Shown here piece by piece: positions 1 through 57,328 of a stretch of DNA of 57,328 bases (position 1 is the stretch's first letter; every line of letters begins with the position of its first letter). The stretch covers positions 1 through 57,328 of the forward strand of contig CAZWTE010000001.1 in NCBI GenBank assembly GCA_964637465.1, in the 5' to 3' direction. The notes under the pieces were generated by a model. It saw nothing but the letters and a program-made list of their open reading frames with translations, searched no databases and was not told where the DNA came from. A program made the position numbers and the translations under genes. Origin of the DNA: an uncultured Gammaproteobacteria bacterium (GTDB lineage Bacteria; Patescibacteriota; Microgenomatia; Daviesbacterales; UBA10151).

Positions 1-1331
1 ATTTTCCCTTAATTGGTCCTCCGACTTCTGTTGGCAATATTTACCTTGGGCCGCTTTATTACTACATGATGGCTTTGCCGATGGCAATTTTTTATCTTAA
101 TCCGGTGGCGGCAGCTGGGATGAATGCATTTTTAGGTGTTGTAGCTGCGGCTTTTATTTATTATCTTGGTAAGATCTGGTTTAACAGACAGGCAGGTTTG
201 CTGGCAGCTTATTTATACGCCGTATCGCCCGTGACCATAATTTATTCCCGGTCTTCGTGGAATCCTAATCCTACCCCCCTTTTTGCCTTAGTTAGTATTT
301 TTAGTTTATATAAATTACATAAAACAGGTAATTTTTTGTGGCTTATTCTGACAGGTTTGTCGGTCGGAGCGGCATTACAAATGCATTACTTGGCTGCTAT
401 ATTGTTGCCGGTAACAGGAGCGATTTGGCTTTATGAGATTTTTTTAAAGGTGCGCAATAAACAAAAGATGCAGAATTTGTTAAGAGGTACTTTGTCTGGG
501 GTACTTGCTTTTATATTGATTATGTCACCGCTGATATTGTTTGATTTTAGGCATAACTTTTTAAACTACAGAGCATTAACAGAATTATTCAGCGGGGGAG
601 ATGCAGTTAGGGCGGATTTGATGGTAAATATTGCCCGGATGCCGGTTCTTTATTCTTACAATTTAATAGGGAGATATATCGCAGGAGAGAATCTCATTTT
701 AATCATCATTGTTTCTTTGGTAATTATCGCCACGATGATCTGGAAATTCTCATATTGGCCAAAATTAGTCCTGACTATCTGGCTAGTAGCAGGATTATTT
801 GGACTGACTTTTTATCAACAAGCGGTTTATGATCATTATTTGGGGTTTGTCAATCCTGTTCCGTTTCTGCTTTTAGGATCAGTCATGCTTTATATATCTG
901 GTTTGTCAAAGAGCAAAAGATGGTTGATGACTGGTATGATAATAATCTTGCTGATGTTTTTAACAGTGGTAAATTTACAAAAGAATCCTCTCAGGATACC
1001 ACCAAATAATCAACTTACAAGGACGCAAAAAGTGGCCAAATTTGTAATTGATCAGGCGGGTAATAAGGATTTTAATTTCGCCCTTATTGCCAAAAGTAAT
1101 TATGATTCGGCGTATCAGTTTTATTTGGATTTATATGGGCATAAACCAAAGCAAGCGCCTTTTAATATAACTGAACAATTATTTGTGGTATGCGAAGATA
1201 AAGTTTGTGATCCAACCCATAATGCGAAATATGAAGTGGCTGCTTTTGGTTGGTCAAAGATTGACTGGATGGAAGAAGGTTATGGAGTTAAAATATATAA
1301 ACTAATTCACAATCCATCAGGTAAACCATGA
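1..1331 (+). CDS. GT-C-fold membrane glycosyltransferase, ArnT/PMT_2 (GT39/GT83-like); 5' end cut by the window edge
   Basis: The frame of the 66..1331 ORF stays open back to nt 3 (FPLIGPPTSVGNIYLGPLYYYMMALP...), so the ATG at 66 is internal. The protein is strongly hydrophobic and multi-TM, with a soluble C-terminal tail. Its stop overlaps the next start (ATGA at 1328-1331). Confidence 0.75.
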   Translation, partial: FPLIGPPTSVGNIYLGPLYYYMMALPMAIFYLNPVAAAGMNAFLGVVAAAFIYYLGKIWFNRQAGLLAAYLYAVSPVTIIYSRSSWNPNPTPLFALVSIFSLYKLHKTGNFLWLILTGLSVGAALQMHYLAAILLPVTGAIWLYEIFLKVRNKQKMQNLLRGTLSGVLAFILIMSPLILFDFRHNFLNYRALTELFSGGDAVRADLMVNIARMPVLYSYNLIGRYIAGENLILIIIVSLVIIATMIWKFSYWPKLVLTIWLVAGLFGLTFYQQAVYDHYLGFVNPVPFLLLGSVMLYISGLSKSKRWLMTGMIIILLMFLTVVNLQKNPLRIPPNNQLTRTQKVAKFVIDQAGNKDFNFALIAKSNYDSAYQFYLDLYGHKPKQAPFNITEQLFVVCEDKVCDPTHNAKYEVAAFGWSKIDWMEEGYGVKIYKLIHNPSGKP

Positions 1332-2068
1332 AACTTTCAATTATTATACCGGCTTATAACGAAGAAAAAAACCTTAGAAAAGGCGTGTTGGATGAAGTAA
1401 AAGAATTTTTTACAGATGAAAACAAAGCTTTTGATTACGAGATTATTGTGGTAGATGATGGTTCAGCTGATAAAACAAAAGAAATTATTCAAAAAGAGTA
1501 TTTACATTTCCCGGAAATTAAGCTGATTGAAAATTTGCATGGGGGTAAAGCAAATACCGTTATGACAGGAATGCTCCGGGCTTCAGGGGATATTATTCTT
1601 TTTACTGATATGGATCAGGCAACGCCAATCAATCAGTTGGAAAAGTTTCTGCCAAAATTTGCCGGTGGTTATGATATTGTGATTGGGTCAAGAAAAGGCC
1701 GGAAAGGGGCGCCGCTAATTAGAAAATTATCGGCCTGGGGGTTTGCTGTTCTCCGTGGTGTTATCTTGGGTTTGCCCTTTAAAGATACTCAATGCGGTTT
1801 TAAGGCGTTTAGCAAAGAGTCTGTGGATAAAATCATACCTAAAATTAAAAATGAATGGGGAGTGGTGCATTTTAAAGGCGGGGCAGTTAATGCCGGATTT
1901 GATGTGGAGCTTCTATATTTGGCCAAAAAGTATGGTTTTAATATAGCTGAAGTTGGGGTGGAATGGAACTATGTGGATACGGAAAGGGTACAAGTGGTTA
2001 AAGATGCCATGGCTGCAATTTACGATATGTTCAGGATCAGGTGGAATGATTTAATGGGAAAGTATTAA
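1328..2068 (+). CDS. GT2 polyprenyl-phosphate hexose synthase (DPM1/Alg5/GtrB/ArnC type)
   Basis: 246 aa. Carries SIIIPAYNEE, VVDDGSADKT, a DMD (DxD) motif and DTQCGFK, which are typical of lipid-phosphate sugar synthase GT2s. It sits between two ArnT-like GT-C genes and shares an ATGA overlap with the upstream gene. Confidence 0.8.
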   Translation: MKLSIIIPAYNEEKNLRKGVLDEVKEFFTDENKAFDYEIIVVDDGSADKTKEIIQKEYLHFPEIKLIENLHGGKANTVMTGMLRASGDIILFTDMDQATPINQLEKFLPKFAGGYDIVIGSRKGRKGAPLIRKLSAWGFAVLRGVILGLPFKDTQCGFKAFSKESVDKIIPKIKNEWGVVHFKGGAVNAGFDVELLYLAKKYGFNIAEVGVEWNYVDTERVQVVKDAMAAIYDMFRIRWNDLMGKY

Positions 2069-2133
2069 TTGCCTTTTTGATTACCGGTAAGGAGCAAGAC
2101 CCCTAAGTAATTACTGATTAGTTACAAAATTGG

Positions 2134-2139: not shown

Positions 2140-2145
2140 GTTAAA

Positions 2146-3666
2146 GTGAATTTTATTGTCAGACACCGCCTGGAAATTGTAATTCTTATATTTTTGGCTT
2201 TTTTTTATTTTGCCCTCCGGCTGCCTAACTTAACTTTGCAGCCTATTTTTGCCGATGAAGCAATTTATATCAGATGGGCCCAGGTAATTAAGGCTGAACC
2301 GACCTTGCGTTTTCTGCCTTTATCAGATGGCAAGACGCCGCTTTTTATGTGGGCAATGGTGCCGCTTTTTAAGTTTATTCACGACCCGCTGCTGGCGGGC
2401 CGGTTCTTATCAGTCACTTCAGGCTTTTTCACTTTAATGGGAGTATTTTTCTTATCATACAGAGTTTTTAATAAACGGACGGCTTTTTGGGCAGGCTTAC
2501 TTTATGTAATTACCCCTTACACGCTTTTTTTTGACCGGATGGCTTTGGTTGACCCTTTGCTTGCTGCTTTTACAATTTGGGTAGTTTATTTTGCATTATG
2601 GCTGGTGAGCAGTTTAAGGCTGGATATTGCTATGGTTGTGGGCTATTTGTTGGGAGGAGCGGTTTTGACAAAGACCCCCGGCATGTTAAATTTTTTCCTT
2701 CTCCCGCTGACTTTATTAGGTTTTAAGAATAAAGGAGGTAGCCATACCTTGGTAAAGCTGATAATGGTTTGGGGAGTGGCTATTGTGATTGGCTTTGTGA
2801 TGTACAATTTTTTAAGGCTGGGACCGAATTTCCAGATGCTATCTTCGCGTAATGCTGATTATGTTTTTTCGCCCCTGGAGCTGGCGGGGAGACCATTAGA
2901 TCCGTTTATTCCCCATTTTAATGATATTGCCGACTGGTTTCCCAAGCTCTTAACGTGGCCGATCTTATTAAGCGTAGTAATGGGGGCAGTCTATATTTTT
3001 TATGGATTGTGGCAGCAATCATTTAAAGGGACATCCCTGCCGGGCGCGATAGTTTTGCTTTGGGCATTGATACCGCTGCTGATTAATATGGCATTTTTAC
3101 GGACATTTACGGCCCGTTACCTTTTATCCTCAATACCGCTTCTTTTAATTGTGGCCGGATTTGGGGTAACTAAATTATTGCCGCCGCTTGCCTATATAAA
3201 AAGGTGGCCACTAGCCTTGATGCTAATTGTGCTCTTGCCATTGCCGCTTATGTTTGATTACCTGTTGTTAACTTCGCCGGGGAAGGCTCAATTACCAAAA
3301 GAAGAAAGAAAAGGTTATTTTGAAGATTGGACGGCAGGCTATGGATTCTCTGAAATTGCCAATTTTCTTTTGGAAAAGAACAAGGAACAAAAGGTTGTTT
3401 TAGGAACAGCAGGATTTTTCGGGACGCTACCTGATGGGATTCAAATTTATCTTGATAAATCAAACATACAAATAGTGGGTAGCAGCGCGACAATCTCAGC
3501 GCAAATTAGAAATGCCGCTAAAGACAATTTAACATACTTCCTTGGCAATAAAAAAGATTTGTCGGATAAAATCCGGGATATTGTTTTAATAAAAGAGTAT
3601 CCAAAACTTAAACCCTTAGATAATTCCTTACAGGACGCTACAGTTTTATATCAGGTATTGCCGTAA
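2146..3666 (+). CDS. GT-C-fold membrane glycosyltransferase, ArnT/PMT_2-like
   Basis: 506 aa with a GTG start and many TM helices. The first-loop acidic motif IFADEAIYIRWAQ is followed by GRFLSV...ITPYTLFFDRMALVDP, the pattern of ArnT/PMT_2 proteins. A soluble C-terminal region of about 120 aa follows. Confidence 0.8.
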   Translation: MNFIVRHRLEIVILIFLAFFYFALRLPNLTLQPIFADEAIYIRWAQVIKAEPTLRFLPLSDGKTPLFMWAMVPLFKFIHDPLLAGRFLSVTSGFFTLMGVFFLSYRVFNKRTAFWAGLLYVITPYTLFFDRMALVDPLLAAFTIWVVYFALWLVSSLRLDIAMVVGYLLGGAVLTKTPGMLNFFLLPLTLLGFKNKGGSHTLVKLIMVWGVAIVIGFVMYNFLRLGPNFQMLSSRNADYVFSPLELAGRPLDPFIPHFNDIADWFPKLLTWPILLSVVMGAVYIFYGLWQQSFKGTSLPGAIVLLWALIPLLINMAFLRTFTARYLLSSIPLLLIVAGFGVTKLLPPLAYIKRWPLALMLIVLLPLPLMFDYLLLTSPGKAQLPKEERKGYFEDWTAGYGFSEIANFLLEKNKEQKVVLGTAGFFGTLPDGIQIYLDKSNIQIVGSSATISAQIRNAAKDNLTYFLGNKKDLSDKIRDIVLIKEYPKLKPLDNSLQDATVLYQVLP

Positions 3667-3675
3667 ATAAATTCT

Positions 3676-5328
3676 ATGAAACGATCCTTTTTGATCCCGC
3701 TAATTTTAGTTCTGATAACCTTACCGACAATCTTACCTTTTTTTAATAACAAATTTTTTTATACCCAGGATTATATTTTTATAGCCAGGTTACAACAGAT
3801 GAGCGCCGCCCTTTTTGATGGGCAATTCCCGGTCAGGTGGGCGCCGGATTTACGGTATGGTGAACCGATTTTTAACTTTTATGCCCCGCTGCCTTATTAT
3901 ATAGGTGCAATAATTCATACTTTAGGTTTTAATATTATCTGGTCTGCTAAGATACTTTTTATTCTCTCCGCTATATTATCCGCAGCCGCCATGTATATTT
4001 TAGCAAACCGGTTATTTGGTAGAACTGCCGGTATTTTGGCAGCGGTTTTATATACTTATGCTCCATACCGGGCAGTCGATATGTATGTCAGGGGGTCTTT
4101 ATCAGAAACCTGGGCTTTTATCTTTTTCCCTTTAATTTTTTACAGTTCTGTTATATTAGCTGAAAAAGTAAATCTTAAGCGCTTAAGTCTGCTGGCACTT
4201 TCTTTGGCAGGATTATTTCTAACTCACAATGTCACTACTTTAATGTTTTTGCCGTTCTTATTTTTGTGGTGGGCCTATCTGGTAATCCGGGGAAAGAAAT
4301 GGCAGAGCATGTTACATCTGTTTTTAGCATCGCTTTTAGGGTTTAGTCTGGCTGCTTTCTTTTTATTGCCGGCTGTATTTGAAAGAGACTTAATTCAAAC
4401 TAAATATTTAATAGTCGGTTATTTTAATTTTCGGGCCCACTTTGTGGCTTTCAAACAGTTTTTTTCTTCATTTTGGGGTTATGGCTCATCGCTTTGGGGA
4501 CCTGATGACGGATTGTCTTTTCAGGTAGGCTTAGTAAATTTTGCCGTTTTGTTTATAGCGATTGTTTTAGGAATTTTCTACAGAAAAAACAGCAGATTTT
4601 TAGGACTACTTTTAATATTAGGAGTAAGTTTTCTGTTATCCTTATTTTTACAGCATAATAAATCAGCATTTATCTGGGAAGCTATTCCCTTAATGGCTTT
4701 TATCCAATTCCCCTGGCGTTTTTTGGGCATATCGGTTTTTATTGTTGCCTTGGCAGGCAGCGCTGTTGCTCCTTATTTAAAAAATAAATTACGACCTGTT
4801 TATTTCATTCTAATAATAGCCGCTGTTTTATCAACTTTAATTTACTTTAGACCGAAAGATTATGTTGACGACTCATTTTTTAATAAATTCTTAAATACTG
4901 AAGCTATGCATAAGGGTGTGGATTTAACTAAAGATTATCTGCCAATCTGGGTTGAAACAGTTGACGGCGGGAGGTTTGATATTCCCAGGGCAGAACAGGG
5001 TGAGATTGATGTATCAAATCTGCAGGTAAATTCCATTTCCCAATATTTTTCTGTCAAAGTAAACAAAAACAGCTTGATTGAAATGCCAATTACTTATTTC
5101 CCGGACTGGGAAGTAAAGGCAAATAATGAGATAATCCTACAAAGCTCCCCTTCAAAAACGGGGCTTATCAGGTTTGAACTGCCAAAAGGCGATTATAATG
5201 TGGCAGTTCGGTTTAAGGATACATTTATCAGAACTTTAGGCAATATAATATCCCTGGGTTCAATATTTTTAGTAGTAGTTATTTTAGTGCATGAACGGTC
5301 CAAATGGGGGAACCCTAAAAGAGAATAA
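3676..5328 (+). CDS. Polytopic membrane protein, PTPS_related/COG5617-like (predicted GT-C-type glycosyltransferase)
   Basis: 550 aa. The N-terminal signature is YTQDYIFIARLQQM...GQFPVRWAPDLRYGEPIFNFYAPLPYY. The C-terminus has a beta-rich module (ITYFPDWEVKANNE...YNVAVRF) followed by a terminal TM helix, as in YfhO-type proteins. Confidence 0.7.
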   Translation: MKRSFLIPLILVLITLPTILPFFNNKFFYTQDYIFIARLQQMSAALFDGQFPVRWAPDLRYGEPIFNFYAPLPYYIGAIIHTLGFNIIWSAKILFILSAILSAAAMYILANRLFGRTAGILAAVLYTYAPYRAVDMYVRGSLSETWAFIFFPLIFYSSVILAEKVNLKRLSLLALSLAGLFLTHNVTTLMFLPFLFLWWAYLVIRGKKWQSMLHLFLASLLGFSLAAFFLLPAVFERDLIQTKYLIVGYFNFRAHFVAFKQFFSSFWGYGSSLWGPDDGLSFQVGLVNFAVLFIAIVLGIFYRKNSRFLGLLLILGVSFLLSLFLQHNKSAFIWEAIPLMAFIQFPWRFLGISVFIVALAGSAVAPYLKNKLRPVYFILIIAAVLSTLIYFRPKDYVDDSFFNKFLNTEAMHKGVDLTKDYLPIWVETVDGGRFDIPRAEQGEIDVSNLQVNSISQYFSVKVNKNSLIEMPITYFPDWEVKANNEIILQSSPSKTGLIRFELPKGDYNVAVRFKDTFIRTLGNIISLGSIFLVVVILVHERSKWGNPKRE

Positions 5329-6146
5329 TGAAACGGCTTGTAACATCGAATATATATTTTTTAATTGGTTTGATACTAACCTTAATCTTGCTGTGGCCGC
5401 TTTTTACCGCTCCTTATTTTACCCATCATGATGATGTGCAGGTTATCAGGGTTTATGAGATGGATAAATGTTTTAAAGACGGCCAAATCCCCTGCCGTTG
5501 GGTGCCGGACTTAGGCGGGTTATACGGATATCCAATTTTTAATTATTATGCTCCGCTGCCTTATTATTTTGGAGAATTAATCTATTTGTTAACCGGCAGC
5601 CTGTTAATATCTGCAAAAGTGATGTTTGCCTTCAGTTTTTTAGCAGCGTATGTCTTTATGTATCTTTTAGCCGCAAAACTTTGGGGTAAAATGGGTGGTG
5701 CCCTTTCCGCGATTTTTTACAGCTTCGCACCATATCATGCACTTGATTTTTATATCAGGGGAGCGATGGGAGAAATGTGGGCTTTAATGTTTTTCCCGTT
5801 AAGCTTATGGGCCGCAACTAGACTAGAAGAAAAATCCGGCATTTTAAACCTACTATTGTTTGGAGCTGCATTAGCTGCGCTTATGACATCTCATAATTTA
5901 TCTGCCGTAATCTTTCTGCCGGTTGTTTTAGTTTGGATAGTAATAATATTTTTGAAAAGAAGAAACAAACGTTTTTTGTGGTTAGGTTTAGGTTCGGCAA
6001 TAATTGGGATCATGCTGTCGGCGTTTTATGTACTGCCTGCCATGCTTGAAAAAAACTTAGTGCATCTGGAAACTATGGTAGGAGGGTATTTTTCTTACAC
6101 AGAACACTTTAAAGGGGTGAAAAAATTATTTTTGGAGAGGTCTTAG
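5328..6146 (+). CDS. N-terminal fragment (272 aa) of a PTPS_related paralogue interrupted by an in-frame TAG; probable pseudogene
   Basis: Tandem paralogue of 3676..5328 (THHDDVQVIRVYEM...GQIPCRWVPDLGGLYGYPIFNYYAPLPYY). It ends at TAG 6144-6146, where the paralogue has Trp. It shares a TAATG junction with the upstream gene. Confidence 0.75.
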   Translation: MKRLVTSNIYFLIGLILTLILLWPLFTAPYFTHHDDVQVIRVYEMDKCFKDGQIPCRWVPDLGGLYGYPIFNYYAPLPYYFGELIYLLTGSLLISAKVMFAFSFLAAYVFMYLLAAKLWGKMGGALSAIFYSFAPYHALDFYIRGAMGEMWALMFFPLSLWAATRLEEKSGILNLLLFGAALAALMTSHNLSAVIFLPVVLVWIVIIFLKRRNKRFLWLGLGSAIIGIMLSAFYVLPAMLEKNLVHLETMVGGYFSYTEHFKGVKKLFLERS

Positions 6147-6308
6147 GAATATGGTTCATCAGTCAGGGAAGTCCCGGGCGGAGAAAAGGACGGTCTTTCT
6201 TACCAAATCGGTTGGGTACACCTGCTGGGCTGGTTTCTGGCACTGGTCACTATTAAAGCTTCATGGAAGAAGAACAAACAAACTTCTTTTATTATCATAC
6301 TTCTTTCT

Positions 6309-7037
6309 ATGGCAACTATCTTTGCGGCTTTCCTGATTCACCCAAGATCGGAATTTGTTTGGAAGATAATTGATCCGTTGAAGTATTTGCAGTTTCCGTG
6401 GCGGTTTTTGCTGTTAATTATTTTTTTCGTGTCACTTTCCTCAGGCAGTCTCTTTTTATCAGACGTTAAAAAAAGACGATTAATTTGGACTGCCTTGGTA
6501 TTGCTGGTAGTTGTTTTAAACTTTTCTTATTTCAAGCCGGAGAAATTTATTCAGACAAATGATCAGAAACTTTTAAGTGGGTTAGACTGGGATAAGCAAA
6601 TCAAGCGGTCAATCTTTGATTACTTGCCTATATATGCAAAAGAGCCGCCGGCGGAGCTTGCTAAAGAGAGATACCAAATTTTAACCGGGGACAGCAGGAT
6701 TTTTGATTTTAAAGAAGGAACAAACTGGTTAACTTTTAAAACAGAAACTCGGGAACATACCATTATCCGCCTGTCGCAATACTATTTCCCTGATTGGAAA
6801 ATATTTGTAGACGGGGAAGAGGTTAAGGTGGAGTACAAAAATAACAGTTTAGGCCTGATGACTTTTATTTTAGGCAAGGGTAACCACATAATCCAGGCCA
6901 GGCTTTATGATACACCTGTCAGGACTATTGCCAATTTAATTACTCTGGCGGGCATTGCAATAGTAGCAGTTTTATTTTTGATTTCTTCAGGCAGGATTAG
7001 GAAGTGGATAACATACTACAGGGAGAGAATGAATTAA
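6309..7037 (+). CDS. C-terminal fragment of the same interrupted PTPS_related paralogue; homology actually resumes at nt 6147
   Basis: Same reading frame as 5328..6146 with no further stop between 6147 and 7037. EYGSSV..DGLSYQIGWV aligns to GYGSSL..DGLSFQVGLV of the paralogue. FPWRFL and YYFPDWKIFVDGEEV plus a terminal TM helix are also conserved. ATG 6309 is merely the first Met. Confidence 0.75.
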   Translation: MATIFAAFLIHPRSEFVWKIIDPLKYLQFPWRFLLLIIFFVSLSSGSLFLSDVKKRRLIWTALVLLVVVLNFSYFKPEKFIQTNDQKLLSGLDWDKQIKRSIFDYLPIYAKEPPAELAKERYQILTGDSRIFDFKEGTNWLTFKTETREHTIIRLSQYYFPDWKIFVDGEEVKVEYKNNSLGLMTFILGKGNHIIQARLYDTPVRTIANLITLAGIAIVAVLFLISSGRIRKWITYYRERMN

Positions 7038-7041
7038 AATT

Positions 7042-8517
7042 ATGGATGAAAGTGTTGAGCAAATTGATCCAACTGAGGAGTTAACAACAGAAGCCATTAA
7101 GAAAAAAGCGGTTAAGGGTGCGGCGGTGCTGACAGGGAGGATGATCCTAATGCAGCCTATAAATTTTTTTTCAATGGCGCTGCTGACTGCTTTTCTGGCT
7201 CCTTCAGAGTTCGGTATCTACTTTATCGTATCAGCCGTTAAGAATTTCTTGGCTTATTTTAGCGATATTGGTTTTGCTCCGGCTTTAATCCAAAAAAAAG
7301 AGCAACTGACTGATATAGAACTGAAAACCATTTTCACGGCGCAACAAATGTTGATTTTAATAATAGTAACGATTGGTTTTATATTCTCCCCCTTTATACA
7401 AAGTATTTATCATTTAAACCAGCAGGGAATTTTTCTATTTTGGGCGCTTTTATTTTCTTTATTCTTTTCTTCGCTTAAGACCATTCCGTCAGTTTTGTTG
7501 GAAAGGAAATTGGAATTTAATAGGTGGGTAATTCCCCAGATTACTGAAACTATTATTTTTAACTCATTGGCAGTATTTTTAGCCTGGAAAGGTTTTGGGG
7601 TAACAAGTTATACGGTAGCTGTGCTTGTAGCGGGTTTTATCGGACTTATTATTATGTATTCTGTTCAACCTTGGTTGCCGGGAATTGCTTTTTCCCTCGC
7701 CGCTTTTAAATCAGTATTGAAGTTTGGTATTCCTTATCAGGCAAATACACTTCTTGCCATGGTTAAAGATGACGGGATGATCCTATTTTTGGGCAGTACT
7801 ATTGGCACTTCGGGTATTGGGTTTTTAGGATGGGCGCAAAAGTGGGCTTATGCGCCGTTACGTTTTTTTATGGATCAGGTTATAAAAGTAACGTTTCCCG
7901 CCTTCTCGAGATTACAGGATAACAGGAAAGAACTATCAGATTTAGTTTCAAAGTCAATCTTTTTTATTTGCCTTTTAGTTTTCCCTGCTTTGGTGATGTT
8001 AGTGCTGTTGTCGCCTGTTTTGGTGCAGATTATTCCTAAATATATTAAGTGGAGTCCTGCTTTATTCGCTTTATCAATTCTGGCCGTTACCTCGGCTCTG
8101 GCAGCAATTACTACCCCTTTAACTAATACTCTAAATGCGATTGGTAAAATATCCCTGACTTTTAAGTTAATGATTATGTGGACAGTTCTGACTTGGGTTT
8201 TTGTGCCGGCACTCTCTTTTTTATACGGGGTAAACGGAGCTGCCATAGGGTTTACTTTAGTCGGGTTGAGTTCGGTTGTAGCTTTATATTTAGTATCAAA
8301 GCATGTTGATATAGACTACTTACGAAGCGTAGGTAAACCACTGTTTGCCTCAGTTTTGATGGGAGTTTTGGTATTTATGACCAGAAATCTTTTTTCTGTT
8401 TCGATATTTCAAGTAATCGGTATGGTGGCGGCAGGTTTAATTTCTTATGCAGTGGTAGTTTGTATTCTTGAACCAAAATTGCCGGTTTTGATTAAAAATC
8501 AGTTTAGGAAAAGATAA
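7042..8517 (+). CDS. Wzx-type oligosaccharide/polysaccharide flippase (MOP superfamily)
   Basis: 491 aa with about 12-14 TM helices. The N-terminal pattern KGAAVLTGRMI...LLTAFLAPSEFGIYFIV...DIGFAPALIQKKE is typical of Polysacc_synt family flippases. Confidence 0.75.
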   Translation: MDESVEQIDPTEELTTEAIKKKAVKGAAVLTGRMILMQPINFFSMALLTAFLAPSEFGIYFIVSAVKNFLAYFSDIGFAPALIQKKEQLTDIELKTIFTAQQMLILIIVTIGFIFSPFIQSIYHLNQQGIFLFWALLFSLFFSSLKTIPSVLLERKLEFNRWVIPQITETIIFNSLAVFLAWKGFGVTSYTVAVLVAGFIGLIIMYSVQPWLPGIAFSLAAFKSVLKFGIPYQANTLLAMVKDDGMILFLGSTIGTSGIGFLGWAQKWAYAPLRFFMDQVIKVTFPAFSRLQDNRKELSDLVSKSIFFICLLVFPALVMLVLLSPVLVQIIPKYIKWSPALFALSILAVTSALAAITTPLTNTLNAIGKISLTFKLMIMWTVLTWVFVPALSFLYGVNGAAIGFTLVGLSSVVALYLVSKHVDIDYLRSVGKPLFASVLMGVLVFMTRNLFSVSIFQVIGMVAAGLISYAVVVCILEPKLPVLIKNQFRKR

Positions 8518-21397: not shown

Positions 21398-21398
21398 T

Positions 21399-29111: not shown

Positions 29112-29159
29112 TCGTAGCTTTTTGTGGTGTAAATTGCTACTATTAAGTTTAAAAGCTCC

Positions 29160-41441: not shown

Positions 41442-41488
41442 CTTGATTTTCAACTGCTGCATCTATTTTTTTTTGCTTTTGTTATTTT

Positions 41489-46361: not shown

Positions 46362-46362
46362 A

Positions 46363-49001: not shown

Positions 49002-49735
49002 AAATTAAAAAGACTGATTTTAAATCCTGTTTTGGCTAGAATAAATAAAAGTAGGACCTTAAATGTACCTAAAGAGTATTTGATGCTATTTTTAAAACTT
49101 GCTCCTCTTTTTTTGCCTGAATAAGCTGTTTCCACCGGCACCTGGGTTATTTTAATATCACGATATACAGCTTGCGTTATCAGTTCAAAACTAAATAAAT
49201 AACCATTAGAATTTAGAGAATAATTTATTTTTTCCAGCATTTTTTTTGTATACACTCTAAAGCCTTGATGAAAATCATCTAAATTAATTCCTAATATTAG
49301 TTTGTCTATATAATTTAGAAATCTGATGGGAATCCATTTCCAAACAAACATACCGCTTTTCAATGGGTTATTTGAAGTAGTGAATCTGTTGCCTAAAACA
49401 AACTCTGCGCCTGATTCAATCTGTTTTAAAGCTGTTGGTATGGCAGATGATTTATATTCTCCATCCGGATGAATATCAATGATGACGTCCGCTCCTTTCT
49501 CTAATGCCAAATTTAAAGCTCTTTTCATATTGCCTCCGTAACCTAAATTTACGCAGTTACTGTAAGAATGAATACCTAGTTTTTTTGCTAGTTCAAAAGT
49601 ATTATCATGCGACGCGTCATCTACTAAAATAATATCATCTACTAGATGTTTGGGGAAATCTTTATAAAATTTCTCTAGAGATTTGTCTGCATTATAAGCT
49701 ATAAATATAGCAACGATCTTTTTTGTTTTTCTCAT
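48998..49735 (-). CDS. GT2 glycosyltransferase (polyprenyl-phosphate sugar synthase type)
   Basis: The ORF-track start at 49768 would overlap the divergent gene. ATG 49735 (MRKTKKIVAIFIAYNADKS) is the more plausible start. Carries ILVDDASHDNT, NLGYGGN, IDIHPDGEY, and DDFHQGFRVYTKKML. Confidence 0.75.
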   Translation of the reverse strand: MRKTKKIVAIFIAYNADKSLEKFYKDFPKHLVDDIILVDDASHDNTFELAKKLGIHSYSNCVNLGYGGNMKRALNLALEKGADVIIDIHPDGEYKSSAIPTALKQIESGAEFVLGNRFTTSNNPLKSGMFVWKWIPIRFLNYIDKLILGINLDDFHQGFRVYTKKMLEKINYSLNSNGYLFSFELITQAVYRDIKITQVPVETAYSGKKRGASFKNSIKYSLGTFKVLLLFILAKTGFKISLFNL

Positions 49736-49742
49736 CTGGTAT

Positions 49743-49748
49743 ATTATA
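49743..49748 (-). promoter_or_regulatory. Candidate -10 (perfect TATAAT on minus strand), 7 nt from the ATG at 49735
   Basis: The reverse complement of attata is TATAAT. The intergenic region is only 22 nt long, which leaves no room for a 5' UTR or Shine-Dalgarno motif. Confidence 0.35.
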
Positions 49749-49752
49749 TAAG
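49747..49752 (+). promoter_or_regulatory. Candidate -10 (TATAAG), 5 nt from the ATG at 49758; the alternative is TGGTATATT at 49737-49745
   Basis: It overlaps the minus-strand -10 in the 22-nt divergent gap, and no Shine-Dalgarno motif is present. Confidence 0.25.
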
Positions 49753-49757
49753 CTTCT

Positions 49758-51626
49758 ATGGTGAACATAAAGGCTTTGCTAGTCCTTGGTCTAACTGCTG
49801 CCTTGATTATTTTTTTAGGCTATGATTTTTTGAAACCAGCTTTTGACATCGGCCTTACGCCAGAGGATCGGGAATTTATTTTAAGGTATAAATTACTTGG
49901 CCCAAATCCTTTAAGTAAAATATTTCAGGTTTGGTTAGAACGCGGCGCCTACACCACTGTACCCATATATTATATTGGAATAGTACAGAGTATCGCAGGT
50001 TTTAACTACCAATTAATCCAGTCTATAGGTATCTTGTTTAGAACGTTGACTATTTTATCTATATTTCCTTTAGTTGCGATTATTTTTCGAAATATTTGGT
50101 TGGCTACTTTTACAACCATCTTATTTGGTTTTAGCTATACGACAACAGGAGCTTTAGAAACAGGGGTTGAGCCAAGTGAATATTTAGGATTTTTGATGAT
50201 GAATATTTTTTTAATTGCTTATTATTTTTTGAATAGCAAATATTTACTAAATTTTAAATGGTTAATATTAACGTCTTTTCTGCTATTTATTGCGATAATG
50301 ACATCAATAATGAGAGTGTATCCAATTTTATTTTTGATCCCTTTGATTGAAATATTTCTGTCATTTCTAAATTACAAAAAATATAGCTTTAAATATCTTT
50401 TTTTAAAGCTATTGATTCTCTATTTGCCTTTTCTTTTTCTTATTTTTATATCATCTTTTGCGGGATCAGGTCATTTTTCGCTTCCAACAATAATAACAAA
50501 AGTTAGCCAGGGAAATTGGCATTTGTTATTAACCCCCCTGCAAGGCTTAGGTTTCATGATTCCTGTAGGAAAATATTATGCTTATTTGGGAATTTTAGAT
50601 CTAAGTAGTTTTGCTAACTATTTGACGTTCTTATTAGGAGGACCTTTGTTTGTATTTGGTTTTCTTAGTATAATTATTTCTATAACTTATGCAAAAGAGA
50701 AACTGTCTTTCTTTTTTAGGATATTCTTTACAAATTTTGGACTTGAAATATTAATCTACTGGATAGTGCAACAAAGGTTATTTGTTTCTCATGAATTAAG
50801 ATTAAATTTTGATACGCAGCGCCTCTATCCTGTTTTTTTTGGGTTATTTATCTTATCGCTTATGGTGAATTATTTAATCCTTTGGTTAAAAAGTGATAAG
50901 AAACTTAATCAACTTTTTGCCTTATGGGTGGGACCTTCTATTGCATTATTTTTTATAATCATGACTTATTTTTTTGCTGGTTTAGATCTTTCCTTTGGAG
51001 GAGCGCAAGATCATTATCTTTTAATACCAACTCTGGGGATCAGCCTATTTATGGGCGGATTATTGCTGATGCTGTATGAAAAATTATTAGCTTTGAGGCT
51101 AAAATTTGTTGGAATTTTGATGGTGATAATTATATTTGGTTTTCTTTACATTCTTAATAGAGAGATAACTCACAATTATTTCATAGCTGCAAATTTTAAC
51201 GGCAGAGCAGCGGATGGTCAGCAGTTGTTGCAGGAGAAAATCAGAGAGAAATTTAAAAATTATGATTATACCAAACCGGTACTTGTCTATTTTGACACCT
51301 CGGATATACCGCAATATTATGGTCCATTTTATTCAGAAGGCTTACTTACTCCTTTTCCGATCCTGATGTATTCTCAAGGGGAGAAGGTGGTTAGCGGTTG
51401 CGTGAGTATTGTTTATGAGGACAGAAAGATGAATAAACTGAAAAAATTAATAAAAACAATTAACAGTCAGCAAGTGATAGCATATCAAACAGCTTGTGTT
51501 GAAAATAATAGAATAGTTGTTCAAGATGTCATCTATAAACCGGAGAATCTATACGCTTTGAAAATTAAAGATGGTGATTTTGTTGATATTAAAGACCAGA
51601 TTTTGGAGGAACTGAATCTCAAATGA
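49758..51626 (+). CDS. Polytopic membrane protein, unnamed family (DDW-loop family), predicted GT-C-like; copy 1
   Basis: 622 aa with many TM helices. The first loop reads GLTPEDREFILRYKLLGPNPLS...ERGAYTT. The mid motif is MRVYPILFLIPLIE. The soluble C-terminal domain is PVLVYFDTSDIPQYYGPFYSEG...NLYALKIKDGDFVDIKD. Confidence 0.6.
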   Translation: MVNIKALLVLGLTAALIIFLGYDFLKPAFDIGLTPEDREFILRYKLLGPNPLSKIFQVWLERGAYTTVPIYYIGIVQSIAGFNYQLIQSIGILFRTLTILSIFPLVAIIFRNIWLATFTTILFGFSYTTTGALETGVEPSEYLGFLMMNIFLIAYYFLNSKYLLNFKWLILTSFLLFIAIMTSIMRVYPILFLIPLIEIFLSFLNYKKYSFKYLFLKLLILYLPFLFLIFISSFAGSGHFSLPTIITKVSQGNWHLLLTPLQGLGFMIPVGKYYAYLGILDLSSFANYLTFLLGGPLFVFGFLSIIISITYAKEKLSFFFRIFFTNFGLEILIYWIVQQRLFVSHELRLNFDTQRLYPVFFGLFILSLMVNYLILWLKSDKKLNQLFALWVGPSIALFFIIMTYFFAGLDLSFGGAQDHYLLIPTLGISLFMGGLLLMLYEKLLALRLKFVGILMVIIIFGFLYILNREITHNYFIAANFNGRAADGQQLLQEKIREKFKNYDYTKPVLVYFDTSDIPQYYGPFYSEGLLTPFPILMYSQGEKVVSGCVSIVYEDRKMNKLKKLIKTINSQQVIAYQTACVENNRIVVQDVIYKPENLYALKIKDGDFVDIKDQILEELNLK

Positions 51627-53500: not shown

Positions 53501-53504
53501 CTAA

Positions 53505-53711
53505 ATGAATAAAAGGATAAAAGTTGCAGTTATTATACCGGCATATAATTCAGAAAATACCCTGGGATGGGTTTATAGAAATATACCTAAAAAGGGTATT
53601 GATGGGGTTATCATAGTTGATGATGGTTTTAAAGATAACACGGTTGGATTAATGAAAAGCCTGTTAATATTTTTGGCAATTTTATTTTCTGCCGGTTATA
53701 ATAATTTCTAA
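53505..53711 (+). pseudogene. Remnant of a GT2 glycosyltransferase (only the first ~50 residues are recognisable)
   Basis: KVAVIIPAYNSENTL...IDGVIIVDDGFKDNTV matches the N-terminus of 48998..49735-type GT2s. The sequence then degenerates into a hydrophobic tail and a stop. It is followed by the only sizeable non-coding stretch of the window (53712-53877). Confidence 0.65.
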
Positions 53712-53877
53712 GACTGCGTCGGTTTCTGCCTGCTGTCCTTTTACCAAAAGCAACACCGCCGTATCTTACCTTTGTTTTTCCCGGGATAAATGTATTATTA
53801 GTTTTCACTGCCAGATATTTTAGTTCTGATTTTACTCAAAACATATATAGAGCGCAATAGTGTGATCGATTGGGGAA

Positions 53878-55638
53878 TTAAGGTTTAATTTCTGATCTGA
53901 TCTCTTCCAGTTTGTTTCTTGCTACATCAGTAATATTTACTAAATTATCTTTTCCCTGCAAATGAAAAGCATAAATCCGCTCAATAGGTACGGGTTTTAC
54001 CGGATATCCATAAGCAGGCATGGATTTACCATCGATTGCCGCTGAAGCAACTTGCCTAAAATCCTCCATCGGGACAGGAAACCCGCCGTCTTCCTCCCTT
54101 AAATTATAAAGTATGGCAGTGTGAGGTGGAAAGCCAAAAGTAATAGTGTCGTGTAAGGTTCCTCCGTTAGTCCCGTCTCCTTCAAAATAAAAAATAATAG
54201 GTTCTTTGCTCTTGCCGATTTCAGGGATACGGGGAATGGCAGACCAGATTTTTTTACTTATGTCCGCGCCGTGGCTACTTAATAAATTATTAATATAAAT
54301 TCTTGTTGCTATGACCTGAATAATCAATATTATAGAAAATGATACAAATAAGGATATCTGATTTTTTCTTTCCTTTCCCAGGCTAATTATTGTGGCCAAA
54401 AGTATAGTAATGCCTACTGCCGATACAATTAAATACCGGTAAGTAGTGGGGAATATTGAATTCGGGACCCACCACCAGGCGAAAAAGAAGGAAAGTATTG
54501 ACCAGGAAAGTCCCAAAAAAAGAGCTGTTGAAGTATTTTCCCTGTCAAAAAACTTTATCATTAGAAAGGCTGTCAAGATTGCGCCAAAACCACCAATCAA
54601 AAGCAAGAGAATATACCGGCTATCATTAAACGTAAGCAGATTAGTTTGATGTATTAATATAATTAATACAATCCAGCAAACTGCGCCTATGATAATTCTT
54701 TTTATGAATTTGACTTTAGCAACGGGCAGGTCTTTTACCACCAGGGCGGTTATTGCAGCAAATCCAAAAAATGAAGGCAATAATGCCGACCATAATAATT
54801 GTTTTTTGGAAAGAATCTGGAAAGATGACAAAATAAAATCCGGTATGATCATGCTGCCAAACATAACCAGGGGATAGAAAATGAAATCGAATCTGCCCGC
54901 TTGCAGCATTTCAGACATCGCTTTAATTCCCAAACCCATCCGTTGGGTCACTTCTTCGGCAGGGCCCTGTGAATGACCTGTGTAGCGGATGACCAGGAAT
55001 ATCCCTATAATAAGCGCCAACCGCACTCCGACTTTTTTAAGTGTTCTAATGTTTCTTTCCTGGATTATCCAGAAGGTTTCAATCAAGAAAATAAACGGCA
55101 AAGAACCGTGCATTCTGATGGGAGTTGTAATATAAGCAAGATAATAAAGTGAACCGGCTGTTATCAAAATTAATATATTTTTGTCCTCCCTTGCCCTAAG
55201 AAAGAAAAAGAGGAACAGATTAAATAAAGCAATGGTGATATAAGATGGCATATTAAAGACCCAATTAGTGGCATCAAATCCCACGACGGTAATGGAGAAA
55301 AAAATGACGGCAAACAAAGAAGCAATCCTACTTTTTGTCAGATACAAGACCAAAGGATAAAAAGAGAAAGCGGCAAGAATTCTTAATAAATAAGAAAGCA
55401 AATAATACCAGGACGATTCAAATCCAAATATTTTCTGCACCAGTCCCATTAAAATATCCTGCGCACCGTATGGCGTGAGATAGTATGTTACAAGGTTCCA
55501 TTGACCAGGAGATTTTGGTCCCAGATGCTGAAAATATCTGAAAAAGGCCAGCCAGTCATCTCCAAACAGCCCGAGCGAAAAAGTTTGATACAGGGTGAAT
55601 AAACTAACCAAAATGACAGTAATGAAGAAAAAAAGCAT
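53878..55638 (-). CDS. Polytopic membrane protein, same unnamed DDW-loop family; copy 3
   Basis: 586 aa. Carries GLFGDDWLAFFRYFQHLGPKSPG...TPYGAQDILMGLVQKIFG, IRMHGSLPFIFLIE, and FPTTYRYLIVSAVGI. The soluble C-terminal domain is EPIIFYFEGDGTNGG...RIYAFHLQGKDNLVNITD. Confidence 0.6.
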   Translation of the reverse strand: MLFFFITVILVSLFTLYQTFSLGLFGDDWLAFFRYFQHLGPKSPGQWNLVTYYLTPYGAQDILMGLVQKIFGFESSWYYLLSYLLRILAAFSFYPLVLYLTKSRIASLFAVIFFSITVVGFDATNWVFNMPSYITIALFNLFLFFFLRAREDKNILILITAGSLYYLAYITTPIRMHGSLPFIFLIETFWIIQERNIRTLKKVGVRLALIIGIFLVIRYTGHSQGPAEEVTQRMGLGIKAMSEMLQAGRFDFIFYPLVMFGSMIIPDFILSSFQILSKKQLLWSALLPSFFGFAAITALVVKDLPVAKVKFIKRIIIGAVCWIVLIILIHQTNLLTFNDSRYILLLLIGGFGAILTAFLMIKFFDRENTSTALFLGLSWSILSFFFAWWWVPNSIFPTTYRYLIVSAVGITILLATIISLGKERKNQISLFVSFSIILIIQVIATRIYINNLLSSHGADISKKIWSAIPRIPEIGKSKEPIIFYFEGDGTNGGTLHDTITFGFPPHTAILYNLREEDGGFPVPMEDFRQVASAAIDGKSMPAYGYPVKPVPIERIYAFHLQGKDNLVNITDVARNKLEEIRSEIKP

Positions 55639-55658
55639 GATTAGATAATACTTTAGAT

Positions 55659-57328
55659 TTAAGGGTTAGACAAGAGCTCCCGCAGTTTTTGCCTGGCAGC
55701 ATCAGTGATATTTACTAAGTTATCTTTCCCAATAAGTTGGAAGGCATATATTCTTTCGATACCGATTGGTTTATCTTTACCAATGGATTTTCCGTCTGTA
55801 ACTGCCGATAAAACCTCTTTCCAGTCGCTCATTGGTTGCGGAATCTTTTCTTCCCCGGGGATTTTATAGAGAATGGCCATATGGGGAGGGAAACCGAATG
55901 TGACTGAATCGCGCAAAATCGTTTCATTTGTGCCGTCACCCTGAAAATAAAAAATCATTGGTTCTGAATTTTTGCCAACTTCCGGAATATTTGGCATCTG
56001 GGACCAGATTTTATTTACTGTTTCTTTGTTGCGGGTTATATATTCTCCCGCCAGGAAATTTTTTGTAATTAGGGCATGACTGATTTGCAAAATTCCCGCA
56101 ACAAATAAAAAGATGAGTATACTTTTTTGATTTTTGCCAAGACTGATGATTTTTGCAAGTAGCAGCGAGATGCCGACAGCGGAGATTATCAAATAACGAT
56201 GAGTTGTTGGGAATATGGCCGAGGTGTTTGTTTGCCACCAGGGGTAAAGATTTGAAATTATTGTCCAGCCCAAAGCGATAATCAAACCAGCCTTAATCAG
56301 GTAATCTGTTTTAAGGTATAAAAACAGGTTAAAAACCAGGATTATTGAGTAACCGCCTACCAGCAGAGAAGATGCATTGTTGGCATTGGCGAGAACTTCA
56401 GGATTTAATTTAAGAGCGGTTAAGACTATAATCGACCAGATTGTCCCCACAAAGGTTCCGGTCCGGAGAAATTTGAAATTTAGATTGCCGATATGATGTT
56501 TTAAAATAATTAAGAGGATGAGATAAACGAGAAAAAAGGGTAAGAAAATATTAAAAAGATATTGACTCAAACTGACTATGCGTAAACCTTGTGGCAGGAA
56601 AAAATCCGGTATGACGATATTGCCTAATGTAGCCACAGGATAAAGTAAAAAATCGAAATTACCCTGGGAAAGGAGTTGAAACTTGTATTTTAGGCCGATT
56701 ACAAAACCGACGGTAGGGCTTCCACTGATAGTTTCTTTAAAACCGAGCAGGTAAATTACAAAATAAATAACAAAAAAACCCAAAATTTTTAAGCCTGATT
56801 CGGTAAAGTTCAGTTTTTTCTTAACAGCCATCAGTATTTCTAAAAAAATCAGAAAAGGAATAAGGCCATGAGCCCTGATAGGTGTTGCTAAAAAAGTTAA
56901 ACCAAAGAAAAAATAAATTAGCAAAAGGGTTTTAATATTGCTGTTTTGATAATACTTTAAGGAAAAAAACAGCAGGAAACTGAAAAAGGTAATTGCAAGG
57001 TAGGATGGCATGTTAAACACCCAGCTGCTGGCGCCCAGTCCTACCGGGGAGAATAAGAAGAAGAAAACAGCAAACCAAGAAGTAAGTTTTTGTTTAGTTA
57101 AAAGAAAAGCCGGGAAGTAGAGGGAGAAAGCAGCGATTACTCTTAGGGTATAAGAAAGGAGAAAGTAAATATTAGATTCGCTCCCAAAAGATTTATAGAG
57201 GAAAGCCATTATAGCGTCTTGGGAACCATAAGCATTAAGGAGGTATTTAAAATTATTAAAATATTCTGTTGAGTAAAGCCCCAGATGCTTTGGTTCGTCT
57301 AAATAATAGGAGTATCTAAATATGGCCA
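55659..57328 (-). CDS. Polytopic membrane protein, same family; copy 4, with its 5' end beyond the window edge
   Basis: The frame stays open upstream of the ATG at 57209 to the window end (..AIFRYSYYLDEPKHLGLYSTEYFNNFKYLLNAYGSQDAIMAFLYKSFG). That stretch aligns to FFRYFQHLGP...TPYGAQDILMGLVQKIFG of copy 3. It also carries IRAHGLIPFLIFLE, FPTTHRYLIISAVGI, and RIYAFQLIGKDNLVNITD. Confidence 0.65.
   Translation of the reverse strand, partial: AIFRYSYYLDEPKHLGLYSTEYFNNFKYLLNAYGSQDAIMAFLYKSFGSESNIYFLLSYTLRVIAAFSLYFPAFLLTKQKLTSWFAVFFFLFSPVGLGASSWVFNMPSYLAITFFSFLLFFSLKYYQNSNIKTLLLIYFFFGLTFLATPIRAHGLIPFLIFLEILMAVKKKLNFTESGLKILGFFVIYFVIYLLGFKETISGSPTVGFVIGLKYKFQLLSQGNFDFLLYPVATLGNIVIPDFFLPQGLRIVSLSQYLFNIFLPFFLVYLILLIILKHHIGNLNFKFLRTGTFVGTIWSIIVLTALKLNPEVLANANNASSLLVGGYSIILVFNLFLYLKTDYLIKAGLIIALGWTIISNLYPWWQTNTSAIFPTTHRYLIISAVGISLLLAKIISLGKNQKSILIFLFVAGILQISHALITKNFLAGEYITRNKETVNKIWSQMPNIPEVGKNSEPMIFYFQGDGTNETILRDSVTFGFPPHMAILYKIPGEEKIPQPMSDWKEVLSAVTDGKSIGKDKPIGIERIYAFQLIGKDNLVNITDAARQKLRELLSNP

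Follow-up and report, generated by a model that had tools for sequence, protein, structure and literature searches.

What does a bacterium assemble with a gene cluster given over almost wholly to glycan synthesis, in which 22 genes specify polytopic membrane proteins other than flippases? The question is raised by the stretch of DNA analysed here (the window), a complete NCBI contig of 57,328 bp. The window yielded 43 open reading frames (ORFs) of at least 150 aa (g01 to g43) and one 68-aa stub of a family 2 glycosyltransferase (GT2); its coding density is 97.4%, with 36 genes on the + strand (Table 1). On balance, the predicted folds and the sequence comparisons described below probably identify it as part of a chromosomal locus, conserved across Microgenomates, for the multi-step assembly of a cell-envelope glycan from polyprenyl phosphate-linked sugars.

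Gene content of the window

The polytopic non-flippase set comprises 22 genes in 24 ORFs (g01, g03, g04, g05+g06, g08, g10–g13, g17–g23, g26, g31+g32 and g40–g43), two of the genes being broken and two running off the contig ends. The initial annotation, made from the letters alone, had arrived at the same number, which was reached here after merging g05 with g06 and g31 with g32. Its remaining counts were matched by Pfam: seven GT2 genes (g02, g14, g15, g24, g28, g33 and g39) plus one remnant, three GT4 genes (g16, g25 and g29), two MOP/Wzx flippases (g07 and g27; Polysacc_synt) and five nucleotide-sugar enzymes (g30, g34, g35, g37 and g38). Its statement that every gene is glycan-related applies to nearly all of them, the exceptions being g09 and g36 (DUF5667), which are without a demonstrated glycan function.

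Since 22 of the 33 same-strand neighbour pairs overlap or abut, long operons are implied. The frames of g01 and g43 stay open through both contig ends; these genes are cut there, and the cluster therefore extends beyond the window. Scans of the window for tRNAs and Rfam families gave no match. The nearest named homologues were mostly proteins of Candidatus Daviesbacteria metagenome-assembled genomes (MAGs; Microgenomates, Candidate Phyla Radiation [CPR]), with identities of up to ~78% in database matches; the g10 orthologues of related loci reached 89%. From sequence similarity we infer that the source organism is a groundwater Candidatus Daviesbacteria with a tiny genome.

The polytopic proteins as predicted GT-C glycosyltransferases

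The polytopic proteins had been taken at the outset for GT-C glycosyltransferases, and not, for example, transporters. This agreed with Pfam (calls judged against gathering cut-offs) for 14 genes, with orthologue profiles for g17, and, in the case of the g11 and g41 families, with Foldseek comparison of their AlphaFold2 models. The 14 genes above the cut-off were g01, g03, g10, g12 and g18–g23 (PMT_2/PMT), g04 and g05 (PTPS_related), g13 (YfhO) and g26 (PIG-V). Hydropathy gave 7–19 transmembrane (TM) segments in the polytopic proteins, and the acidic motif that the initial annotation had placed in the first extracytoplasmic loop was read in every intact one (DE in g12 and g18–g23, DD in g19, g41 and g42, and HDG in g08 and g11). 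All-vs-all BLAST sorted the genes into a seven-member PMT_2 family (g12 and g18–g23; mutual identity 21–32%), three solitary PMT_2 genes, g04 with g05/06, g13, g17, g26, g08 with g11, g40–g43 (family H) and g31/32 (family I).

The genes lacking a Pfam match above the cut-off were placed by other means. GT87 was matched by 19 of 30 g17 orthologues (best E 2e-11) and PIG-M by 9 of 30, and the g17 family profile found GPI mannosyltransferase 1 in the PDB (E 1.8e-10); these orthologue profiles place g17 with the GT87/PIG-M mannosyltransferases as a predicted member. For g41, the AlphaFold2 model was of high quality (pLDDT 89.7, pTM 0.90), and all Foldseek matches with E < 0.01 were GT-C enzymes (PglB first, then DPY19, STT3, ArnT, AglB and Pmt4; best E 7e-5), with transporters appearing solely at E > 0.02 and low probability. 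Family H, for which 65 homologues were found, has an invariant D35 and was linked by hhalign to PTPS_related (81–86% probability) and PMT_2 (84%). Paralogy to the modelled g11 and g41 in turn places g08, g40, g42 and g43 among the predicted GT-C proteins. Profile searches of PDB sequences with the g11, g41 and g31/32 families returned nothing meaningful. Family I gave no Pfam or PDB match, and NCBIfam only a weak LIC_10190 match for g31; its hhalign probability against PTPS_related (49–82%) is suggestive of a probable GT-C. The catalytic-loop consensus of this family, RGDFPIH, reads KGNFPLL in g31. Three families of the locus, predicted to be GT-C (g08/g11 and g40–g43) or probably so (g31/32), are thus without a Pfam or NCBIfam model.

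An STT3-like predicted architecture in g08 and g11

The best-conserved genes of the locus are g08 and g11. When the AlphaFold2 model of g11 (pLDDT 82, pTM 0.88) was compared by Foldseek, catalytic subunits of oligosaccharyltransferases (OSTs; STT3, AglB and PglB) of bacterial, archaeal and eukaryotic origin filled the first 18 places (E 4e-9 to 3e-6). AftA, AftD and ArnT came next, and transporters appeared solely at E > 0.01. The isolated C-terminal domain of AglB was matched as well (prob 1.0, TM 0.51–0.54), and a low-confidence loop of g11 (354–379) is located as the flexible external loop 5 of OSTs. The g11-type module of g08 sits behind an N-terminal domain of ~500 aa. This architecture, together with the flippase adjacency described below, had been overlooked in the initial annotation, whose GT-C label for both genes held.

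Membership of the STT3 family GT66 is nevertheless unsupported, since the sequence tests failed and the structural scores do not discriminate. STT3 (PF02516) was not matched at E ≤0.01 by g08 or g11, nor at E ≤10 in 29 family members (noise only), and the g11-family profile found no OST among PDB sequences. At the position of the OST motif WWDXG, the g11 orthologues have WYDTGY (WWDYG in OSTs) and g08 has AYDSTAY, but across 132 diverse members the consensus reads YxxTAYVSA, with W571 and D573 unconserved; WYDTGY was therefore rejected as a family feature. Invariant across these 132 members are D137 (in GHDGxWH), Y168-H169 and K306. The TM-scores of g11 against OSTs (0.45–0.52) were no better than those against AftA (0.51/0.56) or ArnT (0.44/0.52), so the 13-TM core with its C-terminal alpha/beta domain is not discriminating for an OST; g41 ranks PglB first too, so such a ranking is in part what any GT-C protein of similar length would give. 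Comparison of the g11 family with the PMT_2, PTPS_related, YfhO and GT87-like families by hhalign gave ≤12% probability.

The family is large. When 1.84 billion representatives (50% identity clusters) were searched with its profile, 1754 clusters passed E ≤1e-3 and 925 passed E ≤1e-30, the members falling into size classes of ~560, ~650 and ~1000–1160 aa; a precomputed Pfam domain was present in none of the g11 homologues among the matches listed. An attempt to bridge the family to STT3 via distant profile matches failed, the best 150 of the 1754 all being close family members. Of 15 loci, 14 have a g08/g11-family gene next after the MOP flippase. One relative (P0210, 1639 aa) is a Polysacc_synt_3–g08 fusion, which could be a gene-calling artefact. 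Their conservation, their position behind the flippase and this one fusion make an OST-like working of g08 and g11 possible. Given also the STT3-like modelled fold, the two proteins probably carry out a central transfer step, and an en-bloc, ligase-like step is possible. The N-terminal domain of g08 (8517–10013) had no Pfam or PDB sequence match, with a weak DUF3863 match in 6 of 30 relatives; g08-type relatives span ~850 to 1640 aa.

GT2s, flippases and the classical genes sought

Four of the GT2s (g02, g28, g33 and g39) are mutually related. Their best PDB match was the dolichol phosphate (Dol-P)-mannose synthase of P. furiosus (5mlz), followed by GtrB or ArnC, and their nearest NCBIfam models were AglJ, the haloarchaeal Dol-P hexose transferase, PpgS and PgfS (for g02, PgfS and the Dol-P hexose transferase, below the cut-off). 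The other three, g14, g15 and g24, form a separate subfamily nearest to GmaR and SunS in the PDB. DPM1-type GT2s making polyprenyl phosphate sugars for the GT-C enzymes had been proposed before; that logic fits the first four and does not extend to the GmaR/SunS-like three.

The nearest NCBIfam models of the flippase g07 were an MOP flippase, an O-glycosylation flippase and TuaB. Bac_transf, Glycos_transf_4, Wzz and Wzy_C were not found above threshold in any ORF of the window by Pfam or NCBIfam; the lone Wzy_C match, in g05 (16.6 bits vs a cut-off of 31.7), lay beneath a PMT_2/PTPS_related match. Wzy and WaaL were likewise absent from the Foldseek lists of g11 and g41. Among the 82 ORFs of 47 related loci that matched no window gene, which include methyltransferases, another GT2 family, polytopic proteins and a recurrent bitopic protein of 190–225 aa, no sequence resembling an initiating phosphoglycosyltransferase (PGT) was evident. 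The recurrent ORF was considered as a small PglC-type PGT and rejected, being bitopic and without PGT-like sequence. The absence of an initiation/Wzy/Wzz/WaaL set, remarked on in the initial annotation, is therefore seen on the contig, the only part of this genome available, where none passes threshold; nor did any such gene turn up in the flanks of 43 related loci.

A conserved chromosomal core with a plastic margin

Related loci from other genomes (L-numbers) were mapped by ORF calling and BLAST against the window genes. In a Daviesbacteria contig of 769,731 bp, a g11 orthologue was found at 384–406 kb, its flanking genes being the same and in the same order as in the window. A scan of species-representative genomes with g17 gave 43 loci in Daviesbacteria, Woesebacteria, Amesbacteria, Microgenomatus and others, some of them in chromosomes of 0.80 and 0.98 Mb. 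Loci L005 and L007 are collinear with g10–g24 at 54–89% identity; within them, g18–g23 show 54–78% identity to their positional orthologues, compared with 21–32% among paralogues. The PMT_2 duplications are thus old and each copy has been kept, and such one-to-one retention of divergent paralogues fits a fixed multi-step pathway. Distant genomes contain the same families in rearranged blocks (e.g. g01-g02-g03-g04x3-g17-g05/6-g07-g08-g11-g12-g14). In the ~21 kb around the g17 orthologues of 35 full-length loci, the median number of GT-C-like ORFs was 10 (range 6–12), and a median of 88% of the ORFs matched a window gene. A phage, plasmid or mobile-island origin was rejected: orthologous loci lie within chromosomal contigs of 0.77–0.98 Mb, and there are no mobility genes.

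The right-hand end (g39–g43), by contrast with this collinear part, varies between genomes in the copy number of family H and in its neighbours, the extra genes around g41 homologues including an intact GT2, a DegT aminotransferase and methyltransferases. The G+C content is 31–40% without sharp breaks along the contig; the lowest values (0.31–0.34, vs 0.35–0.40 elsewhere) were recorded at 50001–54000, coinciding with the copy-number-variable family H genes. Three glycosyltransferase genes are disrupted. Where the in-frame TAG splits g05/g06, the paralogue g04 has TGG/Trp and the L001 orthologue is intact (569 aa). The T9 tract of g31/g32 carries a frameshift, both pieces being spanned by full-length homologues of 757 and 788 aa; it could be the result of slipped-strand on/off switching, decay or MAG error. 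The 68-aa GT2 stub lies in a 377-bp gap after g41, and an intact 244-aa GT2 is found at the same position in L003. In addition, a T16 run in g37 (47050–47065) replaces base for base the TGCAAGGACTGC of its orthologues; the frame is kept, and g37 reads CFFFFFG where they read CFCKDCG, with the loss of two predicted Zn-ligand Cys. This run looks like an artefact, of assembly or of sequencing, or else like an unusual lesion that inactivates the gene. Taken together, the collinear orthologues, the variable right-hand end and the three disrupted glycosyltransferase genes describe, as far as sequence comparison goes, a conserved core with a plastic margin and not an accessory island.

Two further observations were made on the related loci. 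A triad not on this contig, consisting of a second g17-like gene, the 190–225-aa bitopic protein and an inverted g11-like gene (~40% identity), is present in 15 of them (L006, L012, L016, L017, L019, L025, L026, L032–L034, L037, L039, L040, L042 and L043). Many records with this locus (L005, L006, L009, L011, L012 and others) go under the title 'uncultured Gammaproteobacteria bacterium' (binchicken MAGs), while 'Bdellovibrionales' is given for another; these names look like placeholders or mislabels.

A proposed pathway and its alternatives

From the families, folds, gene order and conservation just described, we infer donors, a flipping step, an order of steps and an acceptor as follows. Activated sugars would be produced by g30, g34, g35, g37 and g38. 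On the cytoplasmic face, the Leloir GT4s g16, g25 and g29, with the GT2s g14, g15 and g24, would assemble a primer or oligosaccharide, while the TM-less DPM1/GtrB/ArnC/AglJ-type GT2s g02, g28, g33 and g39 would put single sugars on polyprenyl phosphate. The flippases g07 and g27 would carry the lipid-linked sugars over the membrane, and on its extracytoplasmic side the 22 GT-C enzymes, of ~8–9 families, would use these polyprenyl phosphate-linked donors, each adding a defined sugar or linkage to an envelope glycoconjugate. YfhO acts on teichoic acids, and GT87/PIG-M and PIG-V act on lipid-anchored glycans; by analogy with these relatives the acceptor leans towards a lipoglycan or wall polymer. 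The PMT_2 proteins and the STT3-like fold would also be compatible with a protein acceptor.

Several points weigh against this proposal. The four candidate synthases have no TM helices and all fall under the NCBIfam equivalog cut-offs; human DPM1 and mycobacterial Ppm1 likewise lack a TM segment. Pfam found no GtrA-type flippase in the window, there being two MOP flippases instead, and the coding density of 97% leaves no room for a small polytopic ORF still without an assignment. No initiating enzyme and no acceptor were identified on the contig. The GT-C status of g31/32 is weak, the right-hand end varies, and the three disrupted genes and the g37 lesion may be MAG errors or real decay. Finally, we know of no characterised system in which four synthases serve 22 GT-C enzymes.

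The OST matches of g11 suggest a different end to the pathway, namely protein glycosylation of the archaeal or eukaryote-like kind with a lipid-linked oligosaccharide (LLO). The GT4s and GT2s would build the oligosaccharide, g07 would flip it, GT87/PIG-M-, PIG-V- and PMT_2-like enzymes would extend it with polyprenyl phosphate sugars, and g08/g11 would transfer it en bloc to S-layer proteins, pilins or other surface proteins. In haloarchaea, initiation is by an AglJ-like GT2 on polyprenyl phosphate; were an enzyme of that kind to initiate here, the pathway could dispense with a PGT. The AglJ model nearest to g33, the matched AglB C-terminal domain, the external loop 5, the WYDTGY of the g11 orthologues, the placement behind the flippase and the Wzx–g08 fusion all agree with this route. 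The failed STT3 and PDB sequence searches, the unconserved W571 and D573 and the equally good AftA and ArnT scores argue against it, as does the PglB-first ranking of g41; nor does hhalign link the g11 family to any other GT-C family of the locus. We consider it unlikely, and its most specific form, a Microgenomates LLO pathway ending in g08/g11 as a divergent, unannotated STT3-fold OST family (at least 1754 clusters) that acts en bloc on surface proteins, somewhat less likely again.

The glycosylation island for combinatorial surface-glycan diversification favoured in the initial annotation, in which gain, loss and inactivation of GT-C genes yield strain-specific glycans, would account for several observations: the differing copy number of family H and its neighbours between Daviesbacteria genomes, the paralogue numbers of PMT_2 and PTPS_related that vary between lineages, the three inactivated genes and the lower G+C at 50–54 kb. 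It was not supported by the comparison with relatives, on which that annotation had made the choice between core and accessory depend. The locus proved to be core apart from the g39–g43 copy number: it is chromosomal, uniform in composition elsewhere and free of mobile-element genes, most of it is collinear and orthologous across Daviesbacteria species, its families recur in Woesebacteria, Amesbacteria and other Microgenomates, and its ancient paralogues are retained one-to-one; the lesions, moreover, may be MAG consensus errors. As an account of the whole locus, diversification is therefore quite improbable. A conventional Wzx/Wzy polysaccharide locus (O-antigen- or exopolysaccharide-like) would explain the company of two Wzx-type flippases, GT2s, GT4s and sugar-nucleotide genes, typical of such loci, if a polymerase or ligase were hidden among the Pfam-less polytopic proteins and the PGT lay elsewhere in the genome, of which the contig covers only part. 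Family I has no fold assignment, and g05 does contain the sub-threshold Wzy_C match. Yet the classical domains were not found above threshold in the window, nor were any evident in the 82 ORFs of related loci without a window match. Those Pfam-less families that were modelled resemble GT-C enzymes and not Wzy, WaaL or SEDS proteins, and 22 GT-C genes would have no role in a Wzy pathway, all of which makes it a very improbable reading.

Coordinates and remaining genes

The coordinates and assignments of all features are collected in Table 1. The two non-enzyme genes, g09 and g36, keep their positions in relatives; either the secreted g36 or the membrane-anchored g09 could be a candidate acceptor or accessory factor.

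Table 1. Genes of the window, with positions, strands, assignments and the matches on which these are based
Gene	Position	Strand	Assignment	Evidence
g01	1..1331 (ORF called from 66)	+	PMT_2-type GT-C, 5' end cut by contig start	PF13231 E 1.5e-11
g02	1328..2068	+	GT2, DPM1/GtrB/ArnC type, no TM	PF00535; PDB 5mlz Dol-P-Man synthase 1.4e-16, then GtrB, ArnC
g03	2146..3666	+	PMT_2 GT-C	PF13231 32.4 bits vs cut-off 26.1
g04	3676..5328	+	PTPS_related/PMT_2 GT-C	PF10131 E 5e-10
g05+g06	5328..7037	+	g04 paralogue, PTPS_related GT-C, in-frame TAG at 6144-6146	
g07	7042..8517	+	MOP/Wzx-type flippase	PF13440 E 5.6e-50
g08	8517..11918	+	1133 aa; ~500-aa extracytoplasmic domain and g11-type GT-C	31% identity to g11 over 650 aa
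g09	11836..12846	+	Single-TM protein beside g08	No Pfam/NCBIfam match; same position in L001, L002
g10	12807..14246	-	PMT_2/PMT GT-C	PF13231 E 1.2e-13, PF02366
g11	14396..16390	+	Pfam-less GT-C, STT3/AglB/PglB-like predicted architecture	AlphaFold2 and Foldseek
g12	16387..18024	+	PMT_2 GT-C, in seven-paralogue family	PF13231, BLAST paralogy
g13	18030..20435	-	YfhO-family GT-C	PF09586 E 3.6e-20
g14, g15	20498..22202	+	Soluble GT2s, second GT2 subfamily	PF00535; nearest PDB GmaR, SunS
g16	22203..23285	+	GT4	PF00534 E 2.8e-22
g17	23282..24421	+	GT87/PIG-M-like GT-C	GT87 19.5 bits, below cut-off 25; placed via orthologues
g18-g23	24414..33805 (24414-25913, 25900-27279, 27477-29111, 29160-30812, 30813-32222, 32219-33805)	+	Tandem array, six PMT_2 GT-C paralogues	PF13231/PF02366 above cut-off, all six
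g24	33802..34575	+	GT2, g14/g15 subfamily	Pfam, BLAST
g25	34572..35648	+	GT4	PF00534 E 4e-31
g26	35641..36804	+	PIG-V-like GT-C	PF04188 E 5.8e-11, 42.8 bits vs cut-off 22.4
g27	36792..38042	+	Second MOP/Wzx-type flippase	PF01943, PF13440
g28	38026..38838	+	GT2, DPM1/GtrB type	PF00535; PDB 5mlz 1.2e-13, GtrB 6e-12
g29	38835..39944	+	GT4	PF00534 E 1e-37
g30	39979..40956	+	Nucleoside diphosphate (NDP)-sugar epimerase/dehydratase (short-chain dehydrogenase/reductase, SDR)	PF01370 E 3e-45; no NCBIfam equivalog reached
g31+g32	40956..43255	+	Polytopic gene, Pfam-less family I, frameshift at T9 41466-41474	Probable GT-C
g33	43218..43970	-	GT2, AglJ/DPM1 type	PDB 5mlz 1.3e-18; NCBIfam AglJ 1.8e-34, below cut-off
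g34	44074..45408	+	Nucleotide-sugar dehydrogenase	TIGR03026 312 bits vs cut-off 190; Pfam
g35	45405..46361	+	NDP-sugar epimerase/dehydratase (SDR)	PF01370 E 4e-58
g36	46336..46866	+	Secreted DUF5667 protein, inside sugar-nucleotide operon	PF18915 25.1 bits, below cut-off 27; same position in L003, L004
g37	46889..48133	+	NDP-sugar C-methyltransferase with T16 run	PF08484 E 4e-57
g38	48120..49001	-	RmlD-like 4-keto-sugar reductase	PF04321 E 1.7e-46
g39	48998..49768	-	GT2, PpgS/AglJ/DPM1 type	PF00535; PDB 5mlz 2.3e-6; NCBIfam PpgS 2.3e-18, below cut-off
g40, g41	49758-51626, 51623-53500	+	Pfam-less GT-C family H	AlphaFold2 and Foldseek of g41
GT2 remnant	53505..53711	+	68 aa, N-terminal part only	
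g42	53878..55638	-	Family H GT-C	Identity 24% to g41, 40% to g43
g43	55659..57328 (ORF called to 57209)	-	Family H GT-C, N-terminus cut by contig end	

Significance

CPR genomes have been noted in general terms to encode many glycosyltransferases, and the CPR envelope is not understood (PMC5220378). Searches of the full-text literature brought up no account of GT-C arrays, or of OST-like proteins, for CPR bacteria. The related chromosomes are only ~0.8–1.0 Mb, and a conserved block that exceeds 57 kb and encodes no fewer than 22 extracytoplasmic glycosyltransferases would take up a large share of so small a genome; an investment of this size suggests a complex surface glycoconjugate of central importance to how these bacteria live. 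Under an epibiotic lifestyle, such a glycoconjugate could plausibly serve to attach to host cells or to recognise them. Were the LLO/OST route true, it would represent a new bacterial protein-glycosylation system, with an OST lineage outside the PglB group of Campylobacterota/Desulfobacterota. Metaproteomics, glycomics and heterologous expression can draw on the locus as a defined set of genes, one of its model-less GT-C families being large and STT3-like in predicted architecture.

Comparison with known systems

For the multi-step envelope-glycan assembly proposed here, the closest precedents are the three-component systems (GtrA/B/V, CsbB-GtcA-YfhO and GT136) and the actinobacterial synthesis of lipomannan (LM), lipoarabinomannan (LAM) and arabinogalactan (AG). 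In the three-component systems, a GT2 synthase, a flippase and a GT-C enzyme are encoded together, as are their candidate counterparts in the window; CsbB-GtcA-YfhO also shares a YfhO-family member (g13), and the GT136 system an MOP/MATE-type flippase. The latter, in which a polyprenyl phosphate-ribose synthase, a MATE flippase and GT136 act together, is the precedent for an MOP/MATE flippase in this role (Kelly et al. 2024, PMC11127046). The difference is one of scale, since these systems add a single side-chain sugar with one enzyme of each kind, compared with four candidate synthases, two flippases and 22 GT-C genes (8–9 families) here. Gtr systems, moreover, have a GtrA flippase, whereas the window has none and its candidate synthases have no TM helices.

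The PMT/ArnT enzymes (GT39/GT83) resemble the ten genes that match PF13231 or PF02366, with DE/DD in the first loop; identity is low, however, MIR domains are absent, and NCBIfam gave no match for g21, g04 and g10. We know of no counterpart in characterised systems for the tandem array of six PMT_2 paralogues with its seventh member, g12. N-glycosylation pathways (archaeal Agl with AglJ/AglD, AglR, AglS and AglB; eukaryotic ALG/DPM1/Rft1/STT3; Campylobacter Pgl) have in common with the window GT4s and GT2s, a DPM1/AglJ-like synthase, an MOP flippase, PIG-M/PIG-V-like GT-C enzymes and the STT3-like predicted architecture. They differ in having far fewer PMT_2-type genes, in that g08/g11 fail the STT3 sequence tests and in that the contig has no initiator of the ALG7/WecA/PglC type.

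Actinobacterial LM/LAM/AG synthesis employs Ppm1, PimE, MptA-C, AftA-D, EmbA-C and PpgS/Rv3779. As proposed here, many GT-C enzymes work one after another on the outer side of the membrane with polyprenyl phosphate sugars from TM-less or separate GT2s; GT87-like and PpgS-like relatives are present in the window, and the model of g11 has AftA and AftD among its matches. The actinobacterial genes are, in contrast, scattered over a 4-Mb genome and not gathered in one cluster of >57 kb in chromosomes of ~0.8–1.0 Mb; no Emb-type Pfam match was obtained in the window, three of whose GT-C families have no Pfam model. In scale and clustering, with 22 GT-C genes sharing one block with four candidate synthases and two flippases, the locus is without counterpart in the systems compared. 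Its predicted logic nonetheless resembles the mycobacterial assembly of LM, LAM and AG, or the lumenal ALG steps, more closely than the one-sugar decoration carried out by Gtr systems.

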